Shown one piece after another: positions 4,236 to 16,963 of a stretch of DNA of 16,963 bases. This DNA is from an uncultured archaeon. Lineage in GTDB: Archaea; Asgardarchaeota; Lokiarchaeia; Sigyniarchaeales; SOKP01. The first letter of the stretch is position 1; every line of letters begins with the position of its first letter. Both the position numbers and the translations under genes were made by a program. The stretch spans positions 1 to 16,963 of the forward strand of contig CAYUTF010000074.1 of the NCBI GenBank assembly GCA_964447495.1. The letters are read 5' to 3'. Below the pieces are notes generated by a model that was not told the origin of the DNA, made no database searches, and saw nothing but the letters and a program-made list of their open reading frames with translations.

Positions 4236-7200
4236 ATGTCGAAAATCGGGTCTTCAATAAAGAATCTCAGAGATCGCACACGAGCTAGTGTAAATGTAAA
4301 ATCTAAGAATTTATTGTTCTTTTTTGCGCTATTTTTAGTTGTTTTCATTGCAATCTTGATTAGATTATCACCAATTATCGTTGAAAACTATTTAATCAAG
4401 GCATTCGATCCATGGATTCAATATTATAACGCTGAATATCTATCTACGCATTCTATTTTTGAATATTTTAATTGGCATGATTTTAAAAGTTGGTTTCCAG
4501 AAGGATATCAAAGAGCTAATCTACGGCCTGGCCTGACTTTTACAGTAGTTCTTATATATCAAGCAATTAACGCAATTGGAATACCTGTTTCCCTATATAA
4601 TATCTGTTATTATTTTCCTGCAATAATGGGAGGCGCAACAGTACTTGCTACTTATCTTGTTGGAAAAGAAGCACTCGATAGAAAGTGTGGATTGATTGCA
4701 GCATTTTTTATGGCATTTAATACGGGATTTATGCAAAGAACTACTGCTGGATTTTTTGATAATGAAACGATAGGAGTTTTCGCCACATTAATGACCTTAT
4801 ACTTCTTTTTAAGAACCATGCGAACAGGTAGAGTTCTTGATTCTGTGTTAGGTGGCTTTTTTCTAGGGTATTTAACATTAAGTTGGGGAGGATATTACTT
4901 TGTATTTTATCTTATACCAATTGTAGTTGGTATTTTGGTATTAATTAAAAAATACAATACTAATGTTTTAATCGCATACGGTGGAATTATAGGAACAGGA
5001 TTGTTAATTTTTGCATTTTATTATGGGTTTGATTACAATGACCTCTTCACTTCTCTAAATATTGGAGGAATTTTCATTTTTTCAATTATCTTATCAATTT
5101 ATCATATTATTTACTCAAAAAGAGAAAGTTTTCCACGATTCTATCAAGGTTTACTCAATTTTCTAAAATGGGTGTTAATCCCTGCAATTATCATTTTAGC
5201 AGTAATTATATGGATAGAGCCAAATATCATTCCCTTTGGTTTTGGAGGAAGAATCCAAAGCATACTTAGCCCTTTAATTCGTGATCAGATGCATCTTACC
5301 GCCTCCGTGGCAGAACATATGCCAAGTGCTTGGAGTGTATTTTATTATAACACCTTGATCCCACTAATTGTACTCCCTCTCGGACTATTCTTTTTGTTTC
5401 GAAGAGCTAATGCTGCGGATATATTACTAATTGTCTTTATGTTAACATTATTTTATTTTACAGGAAGTATGATTCGGATTATTTTATTATTTGCCCCCGC
5501 TGCTTGTTTAGTTGGAGCTTATGGGTTATCAAATATCCTAAAAATATTTGGCAGTTTTTTTGCCGAAAAAAGTCAAGGAGTAAGCAGAAAACGGAGAAGA
5601 CAATTAAAAAGAATGGTTGGCAAATCAGAAATCGCCATAGTATATTTCATTATAGGATTTATGTGTTTTGCTCAAGTAATGCATGCCTCGGAAATTGCGA
5701 CTGGAAGCTTGAGTACTAGTCAGATTGCGCCTGGTGGCGTGTATCATGATTGGGAAGAATCTTTAACATGGATGAAGACAAATCTTCCAGGTGATACTGT
5801 GGTAGTAAGTTGGTGGGACTATGGTTACTGGCTAACGCCTATTGGAAATATGACCACAGTAAACGATAATGGGACAATTAACTCCACGAGAATCGGCCTA
5901 ACAGGCATGGCATTGATGCAATCAAACGAGTTATATAGTGCAAAAATATTTAAGATCTTAAAAGCAGACTACGTATTGGTCTATTTCGGTTATTTATTTG
6001 AGCCATTGGGCGGTGACGAGGGAAAGTGGCCCTGGATGGTTCGAATCGCGAATGATCATTACACAAAATATAAAAGCTGGGGTTTAGAAGAAGATAATTG
6101 GGGTAGGAACTCGGTTTTTGACGAAACAAAATATTACAACGAAACTTCTGGACGAGCAGAACCCTTGTGGTTTGATAGTCAATTAGTTAAAATGATGTTT
6201 TGGGGTATAGATACTACTCCGTACACAGGAACCAACCCAGCAAATTTTCAGGAGTATTATCGAAAAGAAATTGGAACTAGAAAAACCGATGATGGTCAAA
6301 GTTGGAGTTATTATATCCCAGATCATGGGTATTATGATTCTGATGTGTTTATTCCTGCATTTTATTCTTCCTCCGGCTTAGTTAAAGTCTTCAAGGTTGA
6401 CTATACCGCATTAGATTCAAGCTTTGAAATAAAAAGTCCTGAAGTATTCGATTCGGGGTATGCCACATTTAAGTTAGAGAATACTGGCAAAAAGAATCTC
6501 ACGATATTAGATGTTAAAGTTAACAATGTAAGTCTCAACTATTATCTAGGCAAAGGAATAAATACAAATATCGTAGAAGCTGGAGATAATGATTATGTGT
6601 GGGCAGATATAAAATCAAGTGGAAGAGAGTATAAACCTAATGATGTTGTTAAAATAGAAGTTGAGGCTCAATCTGAAGCATCAGAAGGGGGAACTTATAC
6701 ATTTACTGAAAAAACAAGTAATTTCTTCGTGAAAAAAGCTAAAGAGGGAGAAATACAGATTAACAAGGAAAACAGTTATGTTCTGCAACTAGACGATACT
6801 AGAGCAGATGTATATCTTGAAGTAGAGAATATTGGTGATAGTACTGTAATTTTAAGCAACTATTATGCAGATAAATGGGTTAATGAATTACAAGTATCCA
6901 AATATTGGAGCGGTTCCCCAATTTTAGCTCCCGGAGAAAAAGCTTTTGTCCAAGTTTATAATTACACCATATCATTTGCGACATCAGGAGCAGTAGGAAA
7001 AGAACACAAAATAGGAGTAATTACCCCAAACGAAATTAAAGACGAAATTTTATTGACATCCCATTATGAGAATTATGACTTATCTATAATAGCTAGGAAT
7101 AGGATTATATCTCCCGAAGCAGTTGTAGCTAGAAATAGTAATTTCAGAAAACATATACCCGTTTCATTTGATGGAACCTATGCGTATACATATAATAACG

Positions 7201-8108
7201 GAACTACAAGAATTTATATTAAGCTTGAGAATACGGGAGAAAAACTTTTGGGATTAGACTCGATTTACTTATCTCAGACGGGTCCATGGGTTTCAGTGGA
7301 CACCATACCATCATTATTACTCTTCCCCGGTGATGTCAAATATGTCTCTATTGTAGCTCCAGATGATATTGACATTAATGATGAGATTGGAATTAAAGTA
7401 ACGGGAAATTTTGACGAGTCTACAAAAGCATCCGATATTGGATATACCCATACCATCAGTGAAGATCCAGACCTCCAAATCCTTAAAAATGTAGAAGGGG
7501 ATACCCTCTCTTACATTGCTGCTAATGAAACAGGACAGCTTTTAGTTAAAAACACTGGAAATGTACCATTATCCCTTGAAGAGATATATATAAACTCAAC
7601 TACCGTATTGGATATAGATAGCGATGTTGAATTCCTCTATGGTGATGCCACATTAGAAGTACAAGAATGTGCTTTAATATCCTTTGATGTAACTGATTTC
7701 AAGATTAACTTTACTAACCAAATTAACGTAAATGTCACAACAAATACTACTGCAATGGCGTATACAGAATTCTCAGCAAGTGTCGATTCCTACTATTACA
7801 ATATAGATATTGACGGTGTTGGTACTGATGCGCGAAACTCCCAAAATTTAAAAATAGAAATTGATAATATAGGAGCTTTAAATGTAACGGTAGATGCAAT
7901 ATATATCAATGGTACTTATATTCCTCTTGGACAATTCACTGAAACTATTTATGAGGTAGGCATTGGTGGTTCTGTAACATTCACAATAAGTATCACTCTT
8001 AAATTAGAAAACTTTATTGGTCCTGTTGATACTAACGATAAGCTGGAAATATTAGTTAGAACCATTGAAGGCGCTGAGGATACGCATATAGAAACGGTTA
8101 GGGATTAA
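4236..8108 (+). CDS. aglB: Oligosaccharyltransferase catalytic subunit STT3/AglB with a long C-terminal extracellular extension
   Basis: The multi-pass membrane N-terminal half has FDPW, GFFDNE, SWGGY and SVAEH. The soluble domain has SWWDYGY, DNGTINST and GDEGKWPWMVRIA (DK motif). About 560 extra beta-rich residues follow. Confidence 0.96.
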   Translation: MSKIGSSIKNLRDRTRASVNVKSKNLLFFFALFLVVFIAILIRLSPIIVENYLIKAFDPWIQYYNAEYLSTHSIFEYFNWHDFKSWFPEGYQRANLRPGLTFTVVLIYQAINAIGIPVSLYNICYYFPAIMGGATVLATYLVGKEALDRKCGLIAAFFMAFNTGFMQRTTAGFFDNETIGVFATLMTLYFFLRTMRTGRVLDSVLGGFFLGYLTLSWGGYYFVFYLIPIVVGILVLIKKYNTNVLIAYGGIIGTGLLIFAFYYGFDYNDLFTSLNIGGIFIFSIILSIYHIIYSKRESFPRFYQGLLNFLKWVLIPAIIILAVIIWIEPNIIPFGFGGRIQSILSPLIRDQMHLTASVAEHMPSAWSVFYYNTLIPLIVLPLGLFFLFRRANAADILLIVFMLTLFYFTGSMIRIILLFAPAACLVGAYGLSNILKIFGSFFAEKSQGVSRKRRRQLKRMVGKSEIAIVYFIIGFMCFAQVMHASEIATGSLSTSQIAPGGVYHDWEESLTWMKTNLPGDTVVVSWWDYGYWLTPIGNMTTVNDNGTINSTRIGLTGMALMQSNELYSAKIFKILKADYVLVYFGYLFEPLGGDEGKWPWMVRIANDHYTKYKSWGLEEDNWGRNSVFDETKYYNETSGRAEPLWFDSQLVKMMFWGIDTTPYTGTNPANFQEYYRKEIGTRKTDDGQSWSYYIPDHGYYDSDVFIPAFYSSSGLVKVFKVDYTALDSSFEIKSPEVFDSGYATFKLENTGKKNLTILDVKVNNVSLNYYLGKGINTNIVEAGDNDYVWADIKSSGREYKPNDVVKIEVEAQSEASEGGTYTFTEKTSNFFVKKAKEGEIQINKENSYVLQLDDTRADVYLEVENIGDSTVILSNYYADKWVNELQVSKYWSGSPILAPGEKAFVQVYNYTISFATSGAVGKEHKIGVITPNEIKDEILLTSHYENYDLSIIARNRIISPEAVVARNSNFRKHIPVSFDGTYAYTYNNGTTRIYIKLENTGEKLLGLDSIYLSQTGPWVSVDTIPSLLLFPGDVKYVSIVAPDDIDINDEIGIKVTGNFDESTKASDIGYTHTISEDPDLQILKNVEGDTLSYIAANETGQLLVKNTGNVPLSLEEIYINSTTVLDIDSDVEFLYGDATLEVQECALISFDVTDFKINFTNQINVNVTTNTTAMAYTEFSASVDSYYYNIDIDGVGTDARNSQNLKIEIDNIGALNVTVDAIYINGTYIPLGQFTETIYEVGIGGSVTFTISITLKLENFIGPVDTNDKLEILVRTIEGAEDTHIETVRD

Positions 8109-8278: not shown

Positions 8279-10294
8279 ATGGACTTTATGAGTGTTAATT
8301 TCAAAATACAATCTGATTTTCAGCCAAGAGGAGATCAACCACAAGCAATAAGTGCTCTGGCAAAGAATATCAGAAATGGAAAGAAATTTCAAACGTTATT
8401 AGGTGCTACCGGCACTGGTAAAACGTTCACAATTGCTAATATAATAGAAGAAATCAGAAAGCCAACTTTATTAATGGCTCCGAATAAAACATTAGCCGCT
8501 CAATTATATAATGAACTCAAAGAGCTGTTTCCTGATAATGCTGTCCATTACTTTGTATCTTATTATGATTATTTTCAACCAGAGTCATACTTGCCGGTAA
8601 CTGGGCTATATATCGAAAAAGATTTCTCAGTAAATGAAGAAATTGAAAAACTCCGGTTAGCAGCAACTCACGCAATACGAACCAGGAATGATGTAATCAT
8701 AGTAGCGACAGTATCATGTATATATGGGATTGGAGATCCGGAATATTGGGATAAAACGACCTTGTATGTGGAAAAGGGTCAAAATATCAAGAGAACAGCC
8801 ATCATTAAACAATTGATTAAGATGAATTATGAGCGTTCAAGCGTAGAGTTTAAAAGAGGAATTGTGAGAGTTAAGGGAGATATAGTCGATATTTATCCTG
8901 CCTATTTAGATAATGGTCTAAGAATTTCATTATTCGGAGATGAGATTGAAAGCATTCATGAAATCCATCCTGTTTCTAATTCTATTATAAAAGAAGTCCC
9001 GAATTATCGTATTTTTCCCGCGACTCATTTTATCATTCCTGAAGAAAATAAAGTTAAAGCCTTGGAATTTATTGAACAAGAATTAGAAGAGCAATTGGAG
9101 TTTTTTAAATCCGAACAGAAATTTGCTGAGGCTCAGAGATTAGAGCGGAGAGTGAGGTTTGATCTTGAAATGATGAGAGAGATGGGATATTGCAAAGGAA
9201 TTGAAAATTATTCGAGACATTTAGATGGCAGGGCTCCAGGTTCTCCTCCAATGTGCTTGATCGATTACTTTCCAGAAGATTTCCTTATTGTGGCCGATGA
9301 AAGTCATATAACTATCCCCCAAATACATGGGATGATTGGTGGTGATCGATCACGTAAGAAAAATCTTATTGATTACGGTTGGCGATTGCCGAGCGCCTAT
9401 GATAATCGTCCTTTGACATTTGAAGAATGGGAAAATAAGATTCAATATATTGTATTTATGAGTGCTACACCAGGCTCATATGAGTTAAAGCGATCTGGAG
9501 GTATTTCTGCTGAACAGATAATCAGACCAACTGGACTTGTTGATCCACAGATTGAAGTGAGGCCAGCTACCAATCAAATTGATGATCTGTTAGGGGAAAT
9601 TAGAAAAGTTGTGGAAAACAAAGGAAGAGTATTAATCACTACATTGACTAAACGTATGTCAGAAGATATCGCTGAATATTACGCTGAACTTGGAGTTAAA
9701 ATCGAATATTTACATAGTGAGGTAAACACTGTTGAGAGGTTCGAGATATTGAGGAAATTAAGAGATGGAACCTATGATGTGGTTGTAGGAATAAATTTAC
9801 TTAGAGAAGGACTCGATTTACCAGAAGTTCAACTTGTTGCAATCTTGGATGCTGATAAGTTAGGATTTTTACGAGATACTCGTTCATTGATTCAAACGAT
9901 TGGTAGAGCATCGAGAAATGTAAATGGAAAAGCAATACTTTATGCGGACAGAATGTCACCTGCAATGAAGGAAGCAATTGAGGAAACGAATAGAAGAAGA
10001 AATAAACAAATTGAATATAACAAAACCAATAATATAACGCCTCAAACGATTCAAAAGAACATTTTGGAATCTCTTTCAGAAGAACACGAATTTAAAGAAA
10101 AAGAAGTTAAACGGTTAAAACAACATGTCAAAGATAAAATTGAGGAATTAGAAGTAAAAGGAGATCTTGATGTCATAGTCCAATACCTTGAAAATAAAAT
10201 GTTATTAGCAGCAAAAGAACTTAGGTTTGAAGATGCTGCATTTCTAAGAGATAAAATAATAGAATTCAAGGAAGATTATAAAGCGCAAGCATAA
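8279..10294 (+). CDS. uvrB: Excinuclease ABC subunit B (alternative ATG at 8288)
   Basis: PRGDQPQAI, LLGATGTGKTFT, NKTLAAQLY, FVSYYDYFQPE, GIENYSRH, DESH, SATPG, NLLREGLDLPEV, LIQTIGRASRN, and a C-terminal UVR domain (LRFEDAAFLRD). Confidence 0.99.
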   Translation: MDFMSVNFKIQSDFQPRGDQPQAISALAKNIRNGKKFQTLLGATGTGKTFTIANIIEEIRKPTLLMAPNKTLAAQLYNELKELFPDNAVHYFVSYYDYFQPESYLPVTGLYIEKDFSVNEEIEKLRLAATHAIRTRNDVIIVATVSCIYGIGDPEYWDKTTLYVEKGQNIKRTAIIKQLIKMNYERSSVEFKRGIVRVKGDIVDIYPAYLDNGLRISLFGDEIESIHEIHPVSNSIIKEVPNYRIFPATHFIIPEENKVKALEFIEQELEEQLEFFKSEQKFAEAQRLERRVRFDLEMMREMGYCKGIENYSRHLDGRAPGSPPMCLIDYFPEDFLIVADESHITIPQIHGMIGGDRSRKKNLIDYGWRLPSAYDNRPLTFEEWENKIQYIVFMSATPGSYELKRSGGISAEQIIRPTGLVDPQIEVRPATNQIDDLLGEIRKVVENKGRVLITTLTKRMSEDIAEYYAELGVKIEYLHSEVNTVERFEILRKLRDGTYDVVVGINLLREGLDLPEVQLVAILDADKLGFLRDTRSLIQTIGRASRNVNGKAILYADRMSPAMKEAIEETNRRRNKQIEYNKTNNITPQTIQKNILESLSEEHEFKEKEVKRLKQHVKDKIEELEVKGDLDVIVQYLENKMLLAAKELRFEDAAFLRDKIIEFKEDYKAQA

Positions 10295-10321
10295 TTTTGG
10301 GTATAATTTTATATTCTTTTG

Positions 10322-10951
10322 CTAATTTATAGCAATATTATATTTCTTTAAATCATCAATTAATTTTTCAGTATAGTAAAAATGTATTCCGCTAAAGCCC
10401 AAAGATCGTGCTAATGCTATATTTTTCTTCTCATCATCAATTACTAGTGCCTCAGAAGGTTTACATTCTATATGTTTAATTAATTCTTTATAAAATTCAA
10501 TATCATTCTTATTTTTTTGATAGTCAAAACTAAACACCGTATCATCAAAGTATCTTAAAAAATTACATTTTTTTTCTAAATATTCAATACGTTCTCTTAT
10601 ATTTCCGCTAAAAATCAATAACCTATAATTTCTTTTTAAAATTTGTAATAAATCTTCTATTCCATAATGAATACAATAAGAACCAAACCATATATATCGC
10701 GTGTGCTTTTTCTGCTTTCTATTTATTCCCAATTTTAGAAATAATTGTTCTTCAAAATCATCAATAGTTATCAAACCCTTTCTTAATAAATAACCTGCTG
10801 AATTCGGTTTATCACTAAAGATTTCACGTAATAAAGTTTCATCTTCAATATTATAAATTTCTTTGATCTTCTCTATTGCCAAAATAGTGCCCAAAGTGAA
10901 AAATACTCCACCTAAGTCAAATATGATTGTTTTTATATGATAACTGCTCAT
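10322..10951 (-). CDS. HAD-superfamily hydrolase, subfamily IA (YihX-like phosphatase)
   Basis: Motif I IIFDLGGV, motif II LIFSGN, Lys at QKNK, motif IV VIDDEKKNI...ARSLGF. Confidence 0.88.
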   Translation of the reverse strand: MSSYHIKTIIFDLGGVFFTLGTILAIEKIKEIYNIEDETLLREIFSDKPNSAGYLLRKGLITIDDFEEQLFLKLGINRKQKKHTRYIWFGSYCIHYGIEDLLQILKRNYRLLIFSGNIRERIEYLEKKCNFLRYFDDTVFSFDYQKNKNDIEFYKELIKHIECKPSEALVIDDEKKNIALARSLGFSGIHFYYTEKLIDDLKKYNIAIN

Positions 10952-10973
10952 AATTGAATTAAAAAAATGTACG

Positions 10974-11023
10974 TATTCAAATTTTTGTGTTTTATTAACA
11001 ACTTTCGTAAGGAATTTGATAAT
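10974..11023 (+). repeat. Dispersed intergenic element, copy A (left half plus TTGATAAT core)
   Basis: 46 of 51 aligned columns are identical to 12471-12520 (manual alignment: 3 substitutions, 2 single-base gaps). Confidence 0.9.
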
Positions 11024-11168
11024 CTTAGGAAAATTTTTTCTTTTTTTTTCAATTACCTATAAATAGATGCGTATCCTATCTTCATAATAGCGATTTCGAC
11101 AAAAAGACATTTTTTGTTGAGGAGGGAAAATTGATTAGTAATTAGATGTAGTTGATTGTTCCTGTTTA

Positions 11169-11534
11169 TTATTTCAAGATGGTATAATATAAGAATCCTA
11201 GTCCTCTTGGGGTTGCTTTCCATCCGCTTTCTGTATTCATGAGAAAAAATAATTGTTCTAGCATAGATAAATGATAATGTAAATGCTCATCCTCTAATTG
11301 GAATTTATCCTTTATTTCAACAAAAGACCTAGCATTAGTATCTATAAATTTTAGAAGTTCTCGTCTCGTTTCATTTGTCATTACTGAATAAAGGTGATCA
11401 TGTTCTTCCTTAGGATCAACTTGCTCTGTTTTCTTTAAGTATTCGTTCATCTCTTCCTCTTTTAAACAGCACTTATCTAAAATATCACGACTTCCAATAA
11501 AAGTTGAATGATAAATATCTTCGTCCTCTTTCAT
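11169..11534 (-). CDS. Winged helix-turn-helix (ArsR-like) protein, putative transcriptional regulator
   Basis: NETRRELLKFI...RSFVEIKDKFQLEDEHLHYHLSMLEQ...WKATPRG fits the ArsR/wHTH pattern. The N-terminal CC and HDH residues could bind metal. It is divergent from the ICMT-family gene. Confidence 0.72.
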   Translation of the reverse strand: MKEDEDIYHSTFIGSRDILDKCCLKEEEMNEYLKKTEQVDPKEEHDHLYSVMTNETRRELLKFIDTNARSFVEIKDKFQLEDEHLHYHLSMLEQLFFLMNTESGWKATPRGLGFLYYTILK

Positions 11535-11690
11535 ATTGAATGATAAGATGAGCTTATTTATAATTCTTTTATAAGTTAAATTAATTGATTACAATAATTT
11601 CCACCAAATGGTCTTTTTGAACCAGTTTTTCGAGATATTATTTTAATTAAATTTTATTAAAGGATAATATAGATTAAAAAAAATATGATT

Positions 11691-11695
11691 GGTGA
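11691..11695 (+). promoter_or_regulatory. Shine-Dalgarno-like site (GGTGA) supporting the TTG start at 11705
   Basis: GGTGA lies 9 nt upstream of the TTG. In-frame TGA codons at 11693 and 11696 preclude an upstream start. Confidence 0.5.
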
Positions 11696-11704
11696 TGAGT
11701 TGAT

Positions 11705-12322
11705 TTGATCGTTGCTCTTATTAATTTTATTGTATTAATTATTTCATTTTTGATAATGGGGTACCTTTATATTTTAAGTATCCAACCTATGAAAAGAGAA
11801 GAAAAACGAGGAATTAAAGCTTGGAAAGAATGTAGGATGTTTCGCTCAATTGGTGGTATTTTTGAATTTATTTCGGTTCTTAATTTAGTACTGTGGATTT
11901 GGTTTCCTCTTCCTATAATAAGTGAGTGGAAAGTTAACCCCAATTTCTGGGTTGGAATCATAATAGGGGCTTTTATAATGGTTCCTTGTTTAATTATTCT
12001 TGGAAAGGGGATATTGGATGCAGGAACTGAAACATTATCACCGTTAAAGGACACAGTAATGTATGGAGGTATCTACAATTATATTCGACATCCTCAGACT
12101 CTTGGGGAATTCCCTTTATTCGTTGCGATTAGTTTTATGCTTAATTCATGGTTTCTCATAATAATCTCTGCAATCTCGATCTTTGGATATATTCCAATTA
12201 TGATGTATTATGAAGAAAAAGATTTGATTCGTCGATTTGGAAATCTTTATAAAGAATACCGAGAGCATATGGGAGCTTTCTTTCCAAAATCAAGAAAAAA
12301 TAGAAATCAACATAATTTCTAA
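11705..12322 (+). CDS. Isoprenylcysteine carboxyl methyltransferase (ICMT/Ste14/PEMT) family membrane methyltransferase
   Basis: Several hydrophobic helices, plus the family motifs GGIYNYIRHPQTLG and YEEKDLIRRFGNLYKEYREHMGAFFP. Confidence 0.85.
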   Translation: MIVALINFIVLIISFLIMGYLYILSIQPMKREEKRGIKAWKECRMFRSIGGIFEFISVLNLVLWIWFPLPIISEWKVNPNFWVGIIIGAFIMVPCLIILGKGILDAGTETLSPLKDTVMYGGIYNYIRHPQTLGEFPLFVAISFMLNSWFLIIISAISIFGYIPIMMYYEEKDLIRRFGNLYKEYREHMGAFFPKSRKNRNQHNF

Positions 12323-12470
12323 AACATGAGATTAATTAATTAAACCAATTTATTTAAAAAACACTACTTTTCCAAAAGATATTTTTTAATTAATAAAATT
12401 TAGACCTTTTATTTAATAATTAATGTGATTTAACATTTGGGAGGGAACAAAAGAAGAATCAGATCATATA

Positions 12471-12547
12471 TATTCAAATTTTGTGTTTTATGAACAACTT
12501 TCATGAGGGAATTTGATAATTCATAAATTGAATACTAAATTTCATTA
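12471..12547 (+). repeat. Dispersed intergenic element, copy B (complete; nested inverted repeats)
   Basis: The left 50 bp match copy A and the right 35 bp match copy C. It contains the inverted pairs TATTCAA/TTGAATA and TTTATGAA/TTCATAAA. Confidence 0.9.
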
Positions 12548-12658
12548 GTGTCTAAAAAATTAGTTCCTATTTTTTATTTCTGAAAATACATTTAAATACT
12601 AACTTAACAAAATAGATCTTAATTCAATTAAGACAAAAATTTTGAATTGGGACACAAA

Positions 12659-14311
12659 ATGAAAATTAAAAAATCATATGTTATTTTAAGTCTTCTCATC
12701 TTTACTATCTCATTTTCTATAACTGGCAGAAAATATCAAACTTTTAGAACTCAATATAACTTTGCAACTCCAAAGTTAAGTGTAGGAGAAATATCTATCA
12801 TTACTCCTGAAAACAAAACTTACACTCAACCTGATAATGGATATTATCCCGGTAGTATTGGATTTGAAGATGATCTTATAGGTACAATTCCTGATGATTG
12901 GTGGTATCGTGTTCCAGATGGTGGGAGTTTTTATCGAGTTGTGGATGAATGGCAAGGTCGGAAGAATGTTTATGAAATCAGAAAAAACGGTGGTTCGATT
13001 AAAATTGAAACAAATGTTAATTTTTCTACACCAGCTACAATAGGCTCTGTTGATTTTTGGCTTTATAAGGATACTGGTTCAGGTATAGATCCAAGTAGGA
13101 TTAATTTAGAGGATGGTTATGAAACAGATTATTTTACTTTTGGTTTTGAAGCAGAAACCTTCTATACTGGACCATGGGAAGATAAGCAACAAATTTTTCC
13201 AAATGCATTTTCAGAAGATGAATGGCATTACGTTAGGGTTGATTTCAATATGTCTAAAGGGTGGCAGGTTCAAATAGACGATACACTTTATGGAGCTGGA
13301 TATGCGTTTACAACTTATGTTGGAAATCCTACGCAGGTTATGAATTTTCAGTTAGAATCAATCTGGTCAGGAGATTATCCTAATTATGGTGCATGGCTCG
13401 ATTCTATCGGATACTCTTGGGATCCGAATTACAATATAGGTGATAATTCAGACGAAGGATTACTTCTAAGCTTTAATTCTAATATTGATTTAGATTGGCA
13501 AGGATATTCGCTAGATGGACAAGCTAACAAGACGATCTTAGGAAATACTACGATCCCCATGCCCTCGGATGGGCTCCATTCGATTCAAGTATTTGGAAAT
13601 GATACCATGGGTTCAATGTATGAATCAGACATCCAATACTTCACCACCAATGTATTAGGGCCTTCAATATCCGTAAATTCTCCTCTATCAAATGTTCTAT
13701 CTGGAGTTATAGCCCCATCTTTCACATTAACAATACCCGATGCAGACCTTGATACTACATGGTATTCACTTGACGGTGGAACGACCACTATTCCTTTCAC
13801 TGGTTTATCTGGAAGTATTGATCAAACAGAATGGAATAAGATTGGCAATGGCACGGCCACTATTACATTTTATGCGAATGATACCGCAAATAATATAGCT
13901 CAAGCTTCAGTAACGGTAAGGAAGGACATCATAGTTCCATTAATAAGTATTAATGATCCAAGTAGCACCGAAGAGTTTGAGTTTACTCCAATCTATGATA
14001 TCACTGTAGATGAAGCAAATTTGGATGAAGTTTGGTACACAATTGACGGAGGAGCTCATAATTATACAATTACGGAGTTCTTAGGAACGATAAATTCTGA
14101 AGCATGGGCATACGCGCCCTCTGGTCCCGTGACTATTCGATTTTACGCCCGTGATTTAGCGGGAAATGTAGGCACTGCGTATTTGATTGTTGTGAAAACT
14201 TCTACTCAACAGCAACCCCCTCCTGCAATTCCAGGGTACAATCTTTTCTTGGTAGTTGGAGTGATAAGTTTGATATCGATTATGATACTTCGAAAGCGCC
14301 CTAAATCCTAA
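12659..14311 (+). CDS. Secreted, C-terminally anchored surface glycoprotein with a ConA/LamG-like domain, Ig-like repeats and a Loki-CTERM sorting signal (ORF track starts at TTG 12647)
   Basis: Signal peptide MKIKKSYVILSLLIFTISFSI. Three repeats of LD..(W/G)Y(S/T)(L/I)DG...(F/Y)(A/G)(N/R)D..(G/N). The C-terminus PAIPGYNLFLVVGVISLISIMILRKRPKS (IPGY, TM helix, basic tail) is typical of Loki-CTERM. Many N-x-S/T sequons. Confidence 0.85.
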   Translation: MKIKKSYVILSLLIFTISFSITGRKYQTFRTQYNFATPKLSVGEISIITPENKTYTQPDNGYYPGSIGFEDDLIGTIPDDWWYRVPDGGSFYRVVDEWQGRKNVYEIRKNGGSIKIETNVNFSTPATIGSVDFWLYKDTGSGIDPSRINLEDGYETDYFTFGFEAETFYTGPWEDKQQIFPNAFSEDEWHYVRVDFNMSKGWQVQIDDTLYGAGYAFTTYVGNPTQVMNFQLESIWSGDYPNYGAWLDSIGYSWDPNYNIGDNSDEGLLLSFNSNIDLDWQGYSLDGQANKTILGNTTIPMPSDGLHSIQVFGNDTMGSMYESDIQYFTTNVLGPSISVNSPLSNVLSGVIAPSFTLTIPDADLDTTWYSLDGGTTTIPFTGLSGSIDQTEWNKIGNGTATITFYANDTANNIAQASVTVRKDIIVPLISINDPSSTEEFEFTPIYDITVDEANLDEVWYTIDGGAHNYTITEFLGTINSEAWAYAPSGPVTIRFYARDLAGNVGTAYLIVVKTSTQQQPPPAIPGYNLFLVVGVISLISIMILRKRPKS

Positions 14312-14315
14312 AAAT

Positions 14316-14335
14316 CTTTATTTTTTCTTTTTTTA
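14316..14335 (+). terminator. T-rich tract after the surface-protein gene; candidate terminator
   Basis: CTTTATTTTTTCTTTTTTT begins 5 nt after the stop codon. Confidence 0.5.
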
Positions 14336-14357
14336 TATTATAAAAGAATAGTAAAAC

Positions 14358-14405
14358 TATGAATTAGATGTTGATAATTCATAAATTGAATACCCAGTTT
14401 CATTA
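14358..14405 (+). repeat. Dispersed intergenic element, copy C (core plus right half; perfect 9-bp hairpin)
   Basis: 14371-14405 is identical to 12513-12547 at 32 of 35 positions, the first 23 bp exactly. TATGAATTA (14358-14366) and TAATTCATA (14375-14383) form a perfect inverted repeat. Confidence 0.9.
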
Positions 14406-14497
14406 TTTTATTTTTAATATGCAAATATAAGTAGAAGGTTTTTATTTATCGCAGTAAAACTTTTTTGATCTCCAGAATTATATGAAAATATCAGAAT

Positions 14498-16963
14498 ATG
14501 AATGAAAATATTGTTATTAAAGGAGCTAGACAAAATAATCTAAAGAACATTAATGTTACAATTCCAAGGAATAAACTAGTAATAATTACTGGAATTAGTG
14601 GTAGCGGAAAATCTAGCTTAGCAATGGATACTTTATATGCGGAAGGGCAGAGGAGATTTTTAGAATCCCTTTCAAGTTATGCTAGACAATTTCTTGGAGA
14701 GATGGATAAACCTGATGTCGATTCTATTGAAGGCTTATCTCCTGCAATCGCAATAGAACAAAAACCGCTCTCAAAGAACCCAAGAAGTACTGTAGGTACT
14801 GTAACTGAGATATATGACTATTATAGGCTTCTTTATGCTAATATAGGAATACCTCATTGCCCAAACTGTGGGAAAGAAATAAAACCTCAGACTCCCCAGC
14901 AGATCATTGACCAAATTTTTGGTACATTAAAAGAGGGACAAAAATTCATTATAAAGGCACCAATAATTCGGGATAGAAAAGGAGAGTATAAAGATCTTCT
15001 TGCAGACCTCAAAAAGCAAGGATATGTTCGTGTCGAAATTGATGATATTCAATATACGCTTGATGAGGAAATATCGATGGAAAAAAATATCAAACATAAT
15101 ATTAACGTCATTATCGACCGTTTAGTTATGAAAAAAGACATTAAAACAAGATTAGCCGATTCGATCGAAACTGCCTTAGAATTAACAGATGGTATTGTAA
15201 TTATTGATATTGTAGATGAGGAGGAGCAAATTTTTTCAGAACACCTTGCTTGTGTTGATTGTGGCATTTCTTTTCCGGCAATTGATCATAAAATGTTCTC
15301 CTTTAATATCCCCCATGGAAGTTGTAAATATTGTAATGGTTTAGGAAATGTGATGGAATTTGATTATGGTTTAGTATTGGGAAACGATTTAGATGTCCCA
15401 ATACAGGAAACTCCCATTAGAGACATACCTGGTTTTGGTTCCTTAACAGGATATTTTTGGCAATCATTAGTTCAAGTTGGAAAACATTTAGGGTTTAATG
15501 TAAATAAAACTCCGATCAAGGATATTGACCCCAATCTCCTCCATAAATTATTATTCGGAACAGGGGAAGAACTAATAGATTTTCATTTCGAAAGCGAAAA
15601 TAATGGATATAACAACGGTAAAAGTGAAATAAAATCTTCCTATAGAGTGACACGACCTTTTGAAGGAATTATCCCTATGTTACATAGAAGATATATGGAT
15701 ACACGCTCTGAATGGGCTCGTGGAGTCTATGAGAGTTTCATGAAACAAGCTGATTGCCCTCAATGCAATGGGAATAGGTTAAAAGCGGAAAGCTTAGCTG
15801 TAACAATAGAAAAGTTAAATATCGCAGAATTAACTAAACTTTCAGTTAAAGATGGGCTAAAATTTTTTAATAATTTACACTTAGATGATACTCAAAAAAT
15901 AATTGTAAAAGATATATTAAAAGAAATTTTTGATCGGTTGTCATTTTTAGAGAATGTGGGATTAGATTATATTTCTTTAAGTAGACGATCACATACTTTA
16001 TCAGTTGGAGAAGCAGAAAGAATTCGCTTAGCAACCCAACTTGGGTCTAGTTTAGTGGGAGTATTATATGTTCTTGATGAACCTAGTGTGGGGCTTCATC
16101 AACGAGATATCTCTCGATTGATCAATATGCTTAAGAAACTCAGGGATTTGGGAAACACCGTGATAGTTGTTGAGCATGATGATGAAATAATGAGAAATGC
16201 CGACCATATTATTGATTTAGGCCCTTTAGCAGGAGAAAGCGGTGGTGAAGTGGTTGCTCAAGGTCCTCTTGAAAGCATTTTGAGTTCAAGAACATTAACA
16301 GGAAAATATCTTTCAGGGAAGAAAAAAATCGAATTGCCCAAACAACGACGAAATTTGAATGGAAACTATCTTGAAATAACAGGTGCTCGAGAGAATAATT
16401 TAAAGAATATCAATGTGAAAATTCCACTGGGAGTTTTTACTTGTATAACAGGAGTTTCAGGAGCAGGCAAAACTAGCCTAATAATCGATTGTCTGTATAA
16501 AGGACTTCATAATAAAGTAAATACTCGTAGTACTCGTATAAATCCTGGAGAGTTTGATGATATTAGAGGATTTGAAGAGATTGATAAAATTATTAATATT
16601 GATCAATCACCTATTGGAAGAACTCCGCGTTCTGTTCCCTCAACATATACTAAGGCTTTAGATTACATTCGAGAAATTTTTGCTGGGCTCCCTCAAGCAA
16701 GGGAAAGAGGATACAAAAAAGGAAGATTTAGTTTTAACACCAAATCTGGGCATTGCAAAAAATGTAATGGAACGGGGTACATCCTAAAAGAGATGTACTT
16801 TTTACCCGATGTATATATAAAATGTGATTTATGCAAAGGCAAAAGATACAATGCTGAAACACTTGAAATAAAGTATAGGGGAAAAACGATCTCAGATGTT
16901 CTAGAGATGACCTTTCATCAAGCTCTTGAATTTTTTGACAGTTTTCCTAAACTTAAAAGAACA
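14498..16963 (+). CDS. uvrA: Excinuclease ABC subunit A, 3'-truncated by the window edge (missing from the ORF track)
   Basis: Hand translation gives MNENIVIKGARQNNLKNI...TGISGSGKSSLAMDTLYAEGQRRFLESLSSYARQFL...GLSPAIAIEQK...NPRSTVGTVTEIYDY. CxxC zinc modules, LDEPSVGLHQRD, VVEHD, a second Walker A GVSGAGKT and IDQSPIGRTPRS follow. Confidence 0.98.
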   Translation, partial: MNENIVIKGARQNNLKNINVTIPRNKLVIITGISGSGKSSLAMDTLYAEGQRRFLESLSSYARQFLGEMDKPDVDSIEGLSPAIAIEQKPLSKNPRSTVGTVTEIYDYYRLLYANIGIPHCPNCGKEIKPQTPQQIIDQIFGTLKEGQKFIIKAPIIRDRKGEYKDLLADLKKQGYVRVEIDDIQYTLDEEISMEKNIKHNINVIIDRLVMKKDIKTRLADSIETALELTDGIVIIDIVDEEEQIFSEHLACVDCGISFPAIDHKMFSFNIPHGSCKYCNGLGNVMEFDYGLVLGNDLDVPIQETPIRDIPGFGSLTGYFWQSLVQVGKHLGFNVNKTPIKDIDPNLLHKLLFGTGEELIDFHFESENNGYNNGKSEIKSSYRVTRPFEGIIPMLHRRYMDTRSEWARGVYESFMKQADCPQCNGNRLKAESLAVTIEKLNIAELTKLSVKDGLKFFNNLHLDDTQKIIVKDILKEIFDRLSFLENVGLDYISLSRRSHTLSVGEAERIRLATQLGSSLVGVLYVLDEPSVGLHQRDISRLINMLKKLRDLGNTVIVVEHDDEIMRNADHIIDLGPLAGESGGEVVAQGPLESILSSRTLTGKYLSGKKKIELPKQRRNLNGNYLEITGARENNLKNINVKIPLGVFTCITGVSGAGKTSLIIDCLYKGLHNKVNTRSTRINPGEFDDIRGFEEIDKIINIDQSPIGRTPRSVPSTYTKALDYIREIFAGLPQARERGYKKGRFSFNTKSGHCKKCNGTGYILKEMYFLPDVYIKCDLCKGKRYNAETLEIKYRGKTISDVLEMTFHQALEFFDSFPKLKRT

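Follow-up and report, generated by a model that had tools for sequence, protein, structure and literature searches.

The interval between the conserved repair genes uvrB and uvrA is a hotspot of gene gain and loss in a genus of Asgard archaea (Promethearchaeota), and in one uncultured archaeon of this genus (Lokiarchaeia, lineage SOKP01; genome G000) it contains three direct copies, A, B and C, of a short element composed of a left arm L, an 8-bp core, TTGATAAT, and a right arm R, all present together only in copy B. The window analysed here is the entire contig that carries them, CAYUTF010000074.1 (C74; 16,963 bp, 32% G+C), linkage past its ends being out of view, and its source genome is a metagenome bin of 3.81 Mb in 223 contigs. 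An initial annotation of this DNA had read the copies as possible split sites of a site-specific or integron-like system recombining at the 8-bp core. We find that the locus behaves as a hotspot of gene flux flanked by core genes and marked by recombination scars, of a kind known in bacteria and here in an Asgard genus, and that gene capture has most likely proceeded by ordinary recombination. The arms of the element are native flanks of the neighbouring genes, and the three copies are probably insertion-duplication scars, left when DNA of related strains recombined in through a single crossover or homology-facilitated illegitimate recombination. A role for TTGATAAT as crossover core of a split recombination site or of an integron-like system is not supported, given scattered breakpoints and unequal duplicates among relatives, no recombinase among the window and cargo proteins scanned, no significant hairpin in any of the copies and no family of such sites in the genus.

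Gene flux between uvrB and uvrA across the genus

We found uvrA in 36 of the 41 congeners, and the DNA upstream of it was readable in 34 genomes including G000, with uvrB upstream of uvrA in 25 of the genus loci retrieved. In 18 of the 34 genomes uvrB ends at most 70 bp before uvrA, and in G053 the two are separated by a 200-bp spacer in which a remnant of the former 3′ end of uvrB persists. Ten genomes (G000, G023, G057, G015, G014, G042, G010, G045, G011 and G013) have 0.76–6 kb of mutually different cargo in the interval, and three (G016, G003 and G024) have cargo of at least 2.3–6.9 kb reaching the end of the available DNA, which in G052 and G001 was too short for the interval to be classified. 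As a control, the AglB–uvrB junction showed a gap of 124–191 nt in 23 of 24 readable genomes, whereas the uvrB–uvrA junction was interrupted by at least 0.7 kb in seven of these 24, the cargo differing in each case. These are plain counts, in which relatives are not independent samples. The initial annotation's suggestion of a gene-capture hotspot in Asgard archaea was thus supported, with cargo that differs in at least 13 of the 34 genomes; identical gene content across relatives, which it had named as evidence to the contrary, is not what the interval displays.

Among 18 ORFs (open reading frames) scanned for domains in the relatives' intervals were a CLC channel, an alpha/beta-hydrolase, an antitoxin-like gene with a PIN toxin, Fic and Imm5-like proteins, an ABC permease, a B12/radical-SAM protein, an ArsP–thioredoxin–ArsR set, and LAGLIDADG-bearing proteins of 764 and 1469 aa; G015 also carries a metallophosphoesterase-like ORF, so labelled from its sequence and outside the domain scan. 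None of the 18 was a tyrosine or serine recombinase, and the only trace of a mobility gene in the intervals was an 84-aa DDE_Tnp_1 transposase fragment (L076, from G042, 6873–7127) inside a 3.2-kb insert. A Pfam scan of the 10 largest of the 20 ORFs listed for the window also revealed no recombinase, in agreement with the initial annotation, which had seen no integrase there. It had suggested a recombinase acting in trans; G000 encodes two PF00589 genes, both of which lie on other contigs (C199 and C177).

The arrangements of the interval are distributed patchily over the uvrB tree, as expected if it were exchanged by recombination: G000 forms a sister pair (support 100/99) with G046, in which uvrB and uvrA are adjacent, with no HAD-family hydrolase gene, G010 and G042, which carry the uvrA leader described below, are nested among genomes with the adjacent arrangement, and G023, which shares the HAD gene with G000, is not its sister. 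Moreover, the 5′ end of uvrA is 85–87% identical between G042 and its sisters, compared with 95% among the sisters themselves.

Three repeat copies built from the flanks of HAD and uvrA

Alignment confirmed the three direct copies reported in the initial annotation. Copy A and the corresponding part of B (12471–12520) are identical at 46 of 50 positions, with two 1-nt indels, and copy C matches 12513–12547 of B at 32 of 35 positions, ungapped and with a longest exact run of 23 nt, whereas A and C have only TTGATAAT in common. The similarity between A and B thus stops, and that between B and C starts, at the same 8 bp, as had been noticed. Direct repeats flank each of two inserts, with L-core (50 nt) around a block of two genes for a winged helix-turn-helix (wHTH) regulator and a PEMT/ICMT-like methyltransferase, and core-R (35 nt) around a single surface-protein gene. 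These enclosed genes are as the initial annotation described them. Its description left unmentioned the HAD-family hydrolase gene between uvrB and copy A and an orphan T-tract and TATA-like module (module x) to the right of A.

In a search of the whole 3.81-Mb genome with a 101-nt query around B, copies A (E=3.0e-11) and C (E=1.8e-7) were the only significant matches, the next best being 18 nt long (E=0.028), and in all 42 genus genomes there were only matches of up to 26 nt (E≥6.7e-4). The element is therefore not scattered genome-wide, a finding that would have spoken for a MITE- or REP-like repeat (miniature inverted-repeat transposable element or repetitive extragenic palindrome) in the terms of the initial annotation. 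Beyond its 77 nt, the flanks of B resemble neither the HAD region (score equalled in 183 of 200 shuffles) nor the uvrA leader (122 of 200). Two candidate likenesses close to B were discarded: the 29-nt repeat D9 (10669–10697 vs 12445–12473), considered as a HAD relic, is due to chance (183 of 200 shuffles score equally), and the resemblance of segment z (12386–12443) to G015:C142 amounts to a ~45-nt motif that is differently arranged there and is uninformative.

The description of the sites as palindromic did not stand, since none of the copies folds as DNA into a significant hairpin (z=−0.83, −0.72 and −1.70 for A, B and C, with 41, 52 and 15 of 200 shuffles, respectively, folding at least as well). 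Copy C nonetheless has a 7-bp inverted repeat, TGAATTA...TAATTCA, around the left edge of the core (14360–14381; fold z=−1.7, not significant), with a counterpart dyad in B, GAATT...AATTC around TGAT; that in C could be a small operator-like element of the uvrA leader. No Rfam family matched within 10200–14700 at E≤1, and the window has no tRNA gene.

Comparison with relatives indicates where both arms come from. The left arm L is native 5′-flanking sequence of the HAD gene, which it adjoins in G000, G015 and G023 (39 of 50 positions identical to A in G015 and 38 of 50 in G023), and HAD homologues at other loci lack it upstream (10 loci in one comparison, 3 in another). The HAD gene lies between uvrB and uvrA only in G000, G023, G057 and G015; because 20 of the 22 homologous HAD loci in the species collection lie elsewhere, with just two (G015 and G023) flanked by uvrB and uvrA, we count the gene itself as captured cargo. 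On the other side, core plus R forms the start of a ~125-nt leader conserved upstream of uvrA, copy C matching the orthologous leader of G010 at 33 of 35 positions. Where uvrB and uvrA are adjacent, their spacer carries a motif, ATAAATTGAATATTAAAT, that starts ~38 nt and ends ~20 nt before the uvrA ATG; R resembles this ancestral motif and is accordingly placed, tentatively, in a promoter-proximal position. Both L and R may have a promoter role.

G023 has an empty version of the fused site, uvrB–HAD(−)–[194 bp holding L′-TTTGATAAT-R′]–uvrA, with no other gene between. Copy B is therefore a copy of a fused HAD–uvrA spacer, with A as the HAD-side part of such a spacer and C as the native uvrA leader. 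Immediately left of the core in C is a ~45-nt segment, y, which recurs in G057 copy a, there behind a PIN gene rather than a surface-protein gene, and the last ~12 nt of which are also found in G010, G052, G016 and G057 copy b.

Two further types of upstream sequence were observed in this context. One is a second, type-2 region ~250 nt upstream of uvrA (L062 in G053, L063 in G045, L055 in G024 and L084 in G015) in which the 3′ end and stop of uvrB survive as a relic (…ATAAAATAAAGCCATGAAATTTTT…), so that insertions there evidently entered within the last uvrB codons. The other, to which module x between copy A and the wHTH gene belongs, is a conserved intergenic module with a T-tract, TATAAATAG and then ...CGATTTTGACAAAAATC, located ~5–15 nt before ATGs at several loci. 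Sites with x-like modules are 11031–11105 in the window, G000:C30:19911–20085, L085 (G023:C18) at ~2058–2267 and L086 (G015:C10) at 172–234; those at G000:C30 and G023:C18 follow the ends of Loki-CTERM-type genes, and none contains TTGATAAT. The module may be a common promoter and leader of the surface-protein gene family.

Breakpoints, duplicates and the origin of the repeats

Comparison of gene gain and loss among relatives at the core, as the initial annotation had suggested, revealed a variable interval and a single L-core-R in G023 but, elsewhere, breakpoints away from the core. In five leader copies (G010, G052, G016 and both of G057) homology extends 12–45 nt to the left of the core, which is thus not their boundary, and in G042 leader homology starts ~90 nt to its right. 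In G024 (239 nt, 75% identical), G042 (53 nt, 79%), G045 (50 nt, 82%) and G057 (149 nt, 70%), stretches from upstream of uvrA or from its 5′ region are internally duplicated and have diverged, and truncated uvrA 5′ copies stop at about nt 80, 93 and 110. A comparable scar occurs between AglB and uvrB in G044 (L054, G044:C100; oriented 4353–4496 and 6024–7937), where a 1.8-kb insertion is accompanied by a duplicated uvrB 5′ fragment (aa 3–50) ahead of a gene match that begins at aa 31, giving the same insertion-duplication signature at another junction. Reuse of one crossover point in independent insertions was not encountered among these genomes, the only common breakpoint being that of G023 and copy B.

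Searches for products of recombination at the core were unproductive. No credible excision joint was present in the Logan contigs of four runs, whose depth was 2–7 and which drop rare variants; two listed joints had 21-nt sides in single contigs, one at a depth of 112.6, and were taken as foreign or spurious. Exact stretches of 28 nt and then 23 nt across the core had no match in metagenome_contigs, nor had the 28-nt stretch in genome_contigs, from which the window's own genome may have been left out. An apparent reciprocal y–x junction at G000:C30 and G023:C18 was rejected, as it is really a conserved Loki-CTERM gene end followed by a T-tract and a TATA/leader module, with no TTGATAAT.

We favour, with some confidence, a scheme in which uvrB and uvrA would originally have been adjacent, their normal state in the genus. 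In some lineages, the HAD gene with its own 5′ flank L may then have been joined to the uvrA leader core-R, giving a fused spacer L-TTGATAAT-R of the kind still seen in G023. Two more blocks of DNA, probably from related strains or species, would have recombined into this fused spacer in the G000 lineage: the wHTH/methyltransferase block would have brought a copy of L-core as its homologous anchor, and the surface-gene block a copy of core-R, as part of its native y-core-R leader. Each event could have been a Campbell-type single crossover of a circularised fragment or the combination of one homologous crossover and one illegitimate joint, since either would leave a copy of the anchor at each side of the insert. 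Copy B would thus be the remnant of the recipient's fused spacer, with A and C the anchors beside HAD and uvrA, and the 8-bp overlap would be the point where HAD-side and uvrA-side sequence meet, produced by microhomology at the fusion or by two breakpoints 8 nt apart. HAD and uvrA each retain an intact upstream region, and insertions of this sort would probably be those that survived selection.

Both types of crossover have precedents. PMC3240628 describes how integration of a circular molecule by a single crossover leaves the homologous segment in two copies, and how homology anchors one end in homology-facilitated illegitimate recombination; growth of gene arrays by successive such events is proposed in PMC5361080 for Vibrio type VI secretion system (T6SS) immunity genes and Rhs orphan arrays. 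Consistent with divergence between donor and recipient, and unlike what fresh duplication in place would leave, none of the duplicates is identical to its partner, with ~90% identity in G000 and 70–82% in G024, G042, G045 and G057.

Several points weigh against this scheme. The searched genomes included no donor with HAD-L-core-x...wHTH...ICMT or with the surface gene followed by y-core-R, so that the donors are hypothetical, and by the standards of bacterial homologous recombination anchors of 50 and 35 nt with ~90% identity are a poor substrate. Furthermore, G023 and copy B have their R-side fusion breakpoint in common to within ~2 nt, while the L arm of B is much closer to that of A, with 46 of 50 positions identical, than to that of G023, with 37 of 50, which together would call for two independent fusions at one spot or for gene conversion; there are hints here of a preferred site, which would better explain two such fusions unless A and B have undergone gene conversion. 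Breakpoints only 8 nt apart in a spacer of ~190 nt would also be a coincidence of about one in twelve, on our own estimate rather than a computed value. Given the missing donor, the short anchors and the common breakpoint, we continue to leave a small place to site-specific recombination and a somewhat larger, though still minor, one to in-place repair or a templated patch.

Site-specific recombination would make L-TTGATAAT-R a true attachment site, with crossover in the 8-bp core by a tyrosine or serine recombinase whose gene lies elsewhere; on this unlikely account the wHTH/ICMT and surface-gene blocks would be two integrated non-autonomous cassettes, the attP of each having one arm in common with the chromosomal site, and their integration would restore the upstream regions of HAD and uvrA. 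The order of the parts is indeed that of tandem integration (L-O-x in A, L-O-R in B and y-O-R in C, with O for the core), G023 has a single L-O-R whose R-side breakpoint is that of B within ~2 nt, and the two PF00589 genes of G000 could supply the enzyme from other contigs. However, neither the scanned window proteins nor the 18 cargo ORFs of relatives revealed a recombinase, the cargo blocks of 1.5–1.9 kb lack any mobility function, genome and genus have no additional copies of the site, and its dyad symmetry is not above chance. Moreover, the core is no boundary in G010, G052, G016 and G057, the duplicates in G024, G042, G045 and G057 differ in extent and end points, and TTGATAAT is missing where y-like and x-like sequences abut. 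A related and equally improbable possibility is that the fused spacer serves as a reusable docking site, from which small one-armed gene blocks loop out, re-insert and move between strains or species. The agent would then be a recombinase encoded elsewhere or host recombination acting on the 35–50-nt anchors; repeated use of one site might underlie the common R-side breakpoint of G023 and B and the closeness of L in A and B, an interpretation to which we give as little weight.

That the copies arose in place, with no foreign donor, is also doubtful but deserves rather more consideration. An error of repair or replication (template switching, microhomology-mediated break-induced replication or a templated patch) might have copied the 77-nt spacer into an island inserted once at TTGATAAT, or gene conversion might have homogenised three older copies. 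B is a clean 77-nt island with no homology past either end, the exact 8 bp common to A and C would fit target duplication or microhomology of a single 3.4-kb insertion, and L of A and L of B are nearer to each other than to any orthologue. An extra, unexplained event would nevertheless be needed to set B exactly between the two cargo blocks, G057 copy a and G010 have y and core-R uninterrupted as native leader, so that C is not simply a target duplication, and the single duplicate per insert in other genomes is explained more simply by insertion-duplication. Selection rather than recent common descent could have kept the copies alike if they were operator or promoter modules, bound for instance by the wHTH protein, which would fit the conservation of R upstream of uvrA across species, the intergenic position of every copy at 23–113 nt from a gene start and the presence of a regulator gene between A and B. 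Yet identity of at least 90% over 35–50 nt, spacer positions included, goes well beyond the requirements of an operator, L in copy B points at the 3′ end of the ICMT gene and has nothing there to regulate, L is missing at HAD homologues elsewhere, and G023 has the site with no regulator gene; we therefore regard this explanation as very improbable. It is just as hard to credit that the contig is a strain chimera mis-joined at short common sequences, despite its origin in a 223-contig metagenome bin, the 23-nt exact run common to B and C and the co-occurrence in run X4 of a ~95%-identical variant strain (which also carries the HAD–A–x junction). The order of the parts is confirmed by contigs of four other runs. 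A contig of one of them, X2, which may stem from the same sampling campaign as the source genome, spans 10793–13238 and bridges A and B with no differences, and a second contig, spanning 14216–15000, joins C to uvrA. In addition, copies ~90% alike with exact runs of at most 23 nt are probably too short for a mis-join by a modern assembler, and like structures occur in independent assemblies of other species.

Comparison with known systems and features of the locus

Hotspots of horizontal gene transfer flanked by core genes, or flexible genomic islets, have reportedly been described in bacteria by Oliveira, Touchon and Rocha in 2017. The uvrB–uvrA interval is like these in its conserved flanks, in content that differs at the same position in relatives, in the lack of mobility genes in most instances and in its accessory or defence-like cargo (PIN, Fic, Imm5, the Ars set and surface proteins), and differs from them in being located inside an otherwise tight gene pair, in an Asgard genus, and in that insertion has commonly left behind duplicated, diverged uvrA leader or 5′ sequence. 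It thus provides a multi-genome example of accessory genes, from surface proteins, toxin–antitoxin and immunity genes to transporters and small regulators, entering and leaving Asgard archaeal chromosomes at a fixed spot between conserved repair genes, with scars left behind that allow single events to be read.

These scars share with insertion-duplication a target-homologous segment on both sides of the insert and other joints that are variable and non-homologous (PMC3240628 and PMC5361080), and with the Vibrio T6SS immunity and Rhs orphan arrays the traces of successive events and leftover fragments (PMC5361080). The anchors in G000, in contrast to those of known insertion-duplications, are just 35–50 nt long, and the process is not known from any Asgard archaeon.

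Single genes or gene pairs separated by short repeats at one spot, with no recombinase inside the cassettes, also recall integron cassette arrays. Cassettes of integrons are mostly in one orientation and are bounded by a GTTRRRY core, whereas here the core is TTGATAAT and the wHTH gene is on the minus strand with the ICMT and surface-protein genes on the plus strand; furthermore, the scanned window proteins include no intI, none of the copies has an attC-type fold (z −0.7 to −1.7), and the repeats copy the neighbouring genes' own flanks with no site family elsewhere. In integrative elements such as those that target tRNA genes, attP can carry a copy of the target's end. As in these, direct repeats of tens of bases flank the inserts and the duplicated segment restores the target (here the upstream regions of HAD and uvrA), but no integrase is found in the inserts, the two inserts use different, partly overlapping repeats, and breakpoints vary across genomes. 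With three copies only, all in the window, the element also differs from dispersed MITE- or REP-like repeats.

Hybrid half-sites that meet at a common core are usually read as the mark of site-specific integration. The present locus calls for caution in this respect, as they can also come from fused native flanks that ordinary recombination has partly duplicated. Were the docking site real after all, it would amount to a promoter-embedded gene-capture platform with no linked integrase, in the archaea most closely related to eukaryotes.

The features of the interval are collected in Table 1. To its left, the contig carries, in order, enolase(−), RFC, TruA-like(−) and AglB/STT3 genes, followed by uvrB. 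The wHTH protein additionally matches the HTH_20 model, likewise below cut-off, and the PEMT/ICMT-like protein matches NCBIfam models of isoprenylcysteine and related methyltransferases, all sub-cut-off. The Loki-CTERM tail of the surface protein scores 18.3 bits, slightly short of the 19.9 cut-off, and fragments of paralogues of this protein are common across the genus.

Table 1. Coordinates of the uvrB–uvrA interval and its constituent features in the 16,963-bp window
Feature	Position	Strand	Description
uvrB	8279–10294	+	Pfam UvrB_inter, UvrB, Helicase_C, UVR; conserved left anchor of the variable interval
HAD-family hydrolase gene	10322–10951	−	Pfam HAD_2 and Hydrolase; itself counted as captured cargo
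Copy A	10974–11023	+	Left arm L (native HAD 5′ flank) and TTGATAAT
Module x	11031–11105	+	T-tract and TATAAATAG; promoter/leader-like relic with no gene behind; between copy A and the wHTH gene
Small wHTH regulator gene	11169–11534	−	Cargo; DUF7347 (E=2.1e-5) and SdpR/ArsR-type (E=2.1e-5), both under cut-off
PEMT/ICMT-like membrane methyltransferase gene	11705–12322	+	Cargo; PF04191, 37.1 bits (cut-off 25)
Copy B	12471–12547	+	Complete L-core-R; 77-nt island homologous to the fused HAD–uvrA spacer
Surface-protein gene, 554 aa	12647–14311	+	Cargo; likely ATG at 12660; Big_13 (E=2.6e-4); Loki-CTERM-like tail
Segment y	14326–14370	+	Immediately left of the core in copy C
Copy C	14371–14405	+	Core and right arm R; opens the conserved uvrA leader
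Type-1 uvrA upstream leader, ~125 nt	14371–14497	+	Aligned in G000, G010, G052, G057 (two copies), G023 and G016
uvrA	14498–16963, runs off contig	+	Pfam UvrA_inter, UvrA_DNA-bind; conserved right anchor

Directly upstream of the type-1 uvrA leader, G010 (L074:5569–7863) and G016 (L079:2764–7173) carry a LAGLIDADG_3 protein of an otherwise unassigned family, with no match in PDB or NCBIfam. Full-length homologues occur only at this locus in these two genomes, and a 59-aa C-terminal relic is present in G057 (C22:22313–22480). One might guess that this protein is a homing endonuclease that contributes breaks at the hotspot. Finally, besides its syntenic uvrA, G023 has a second, distant uvrA-like match (C45:5426–6235; 38% identity, in a 484-aa open frame).

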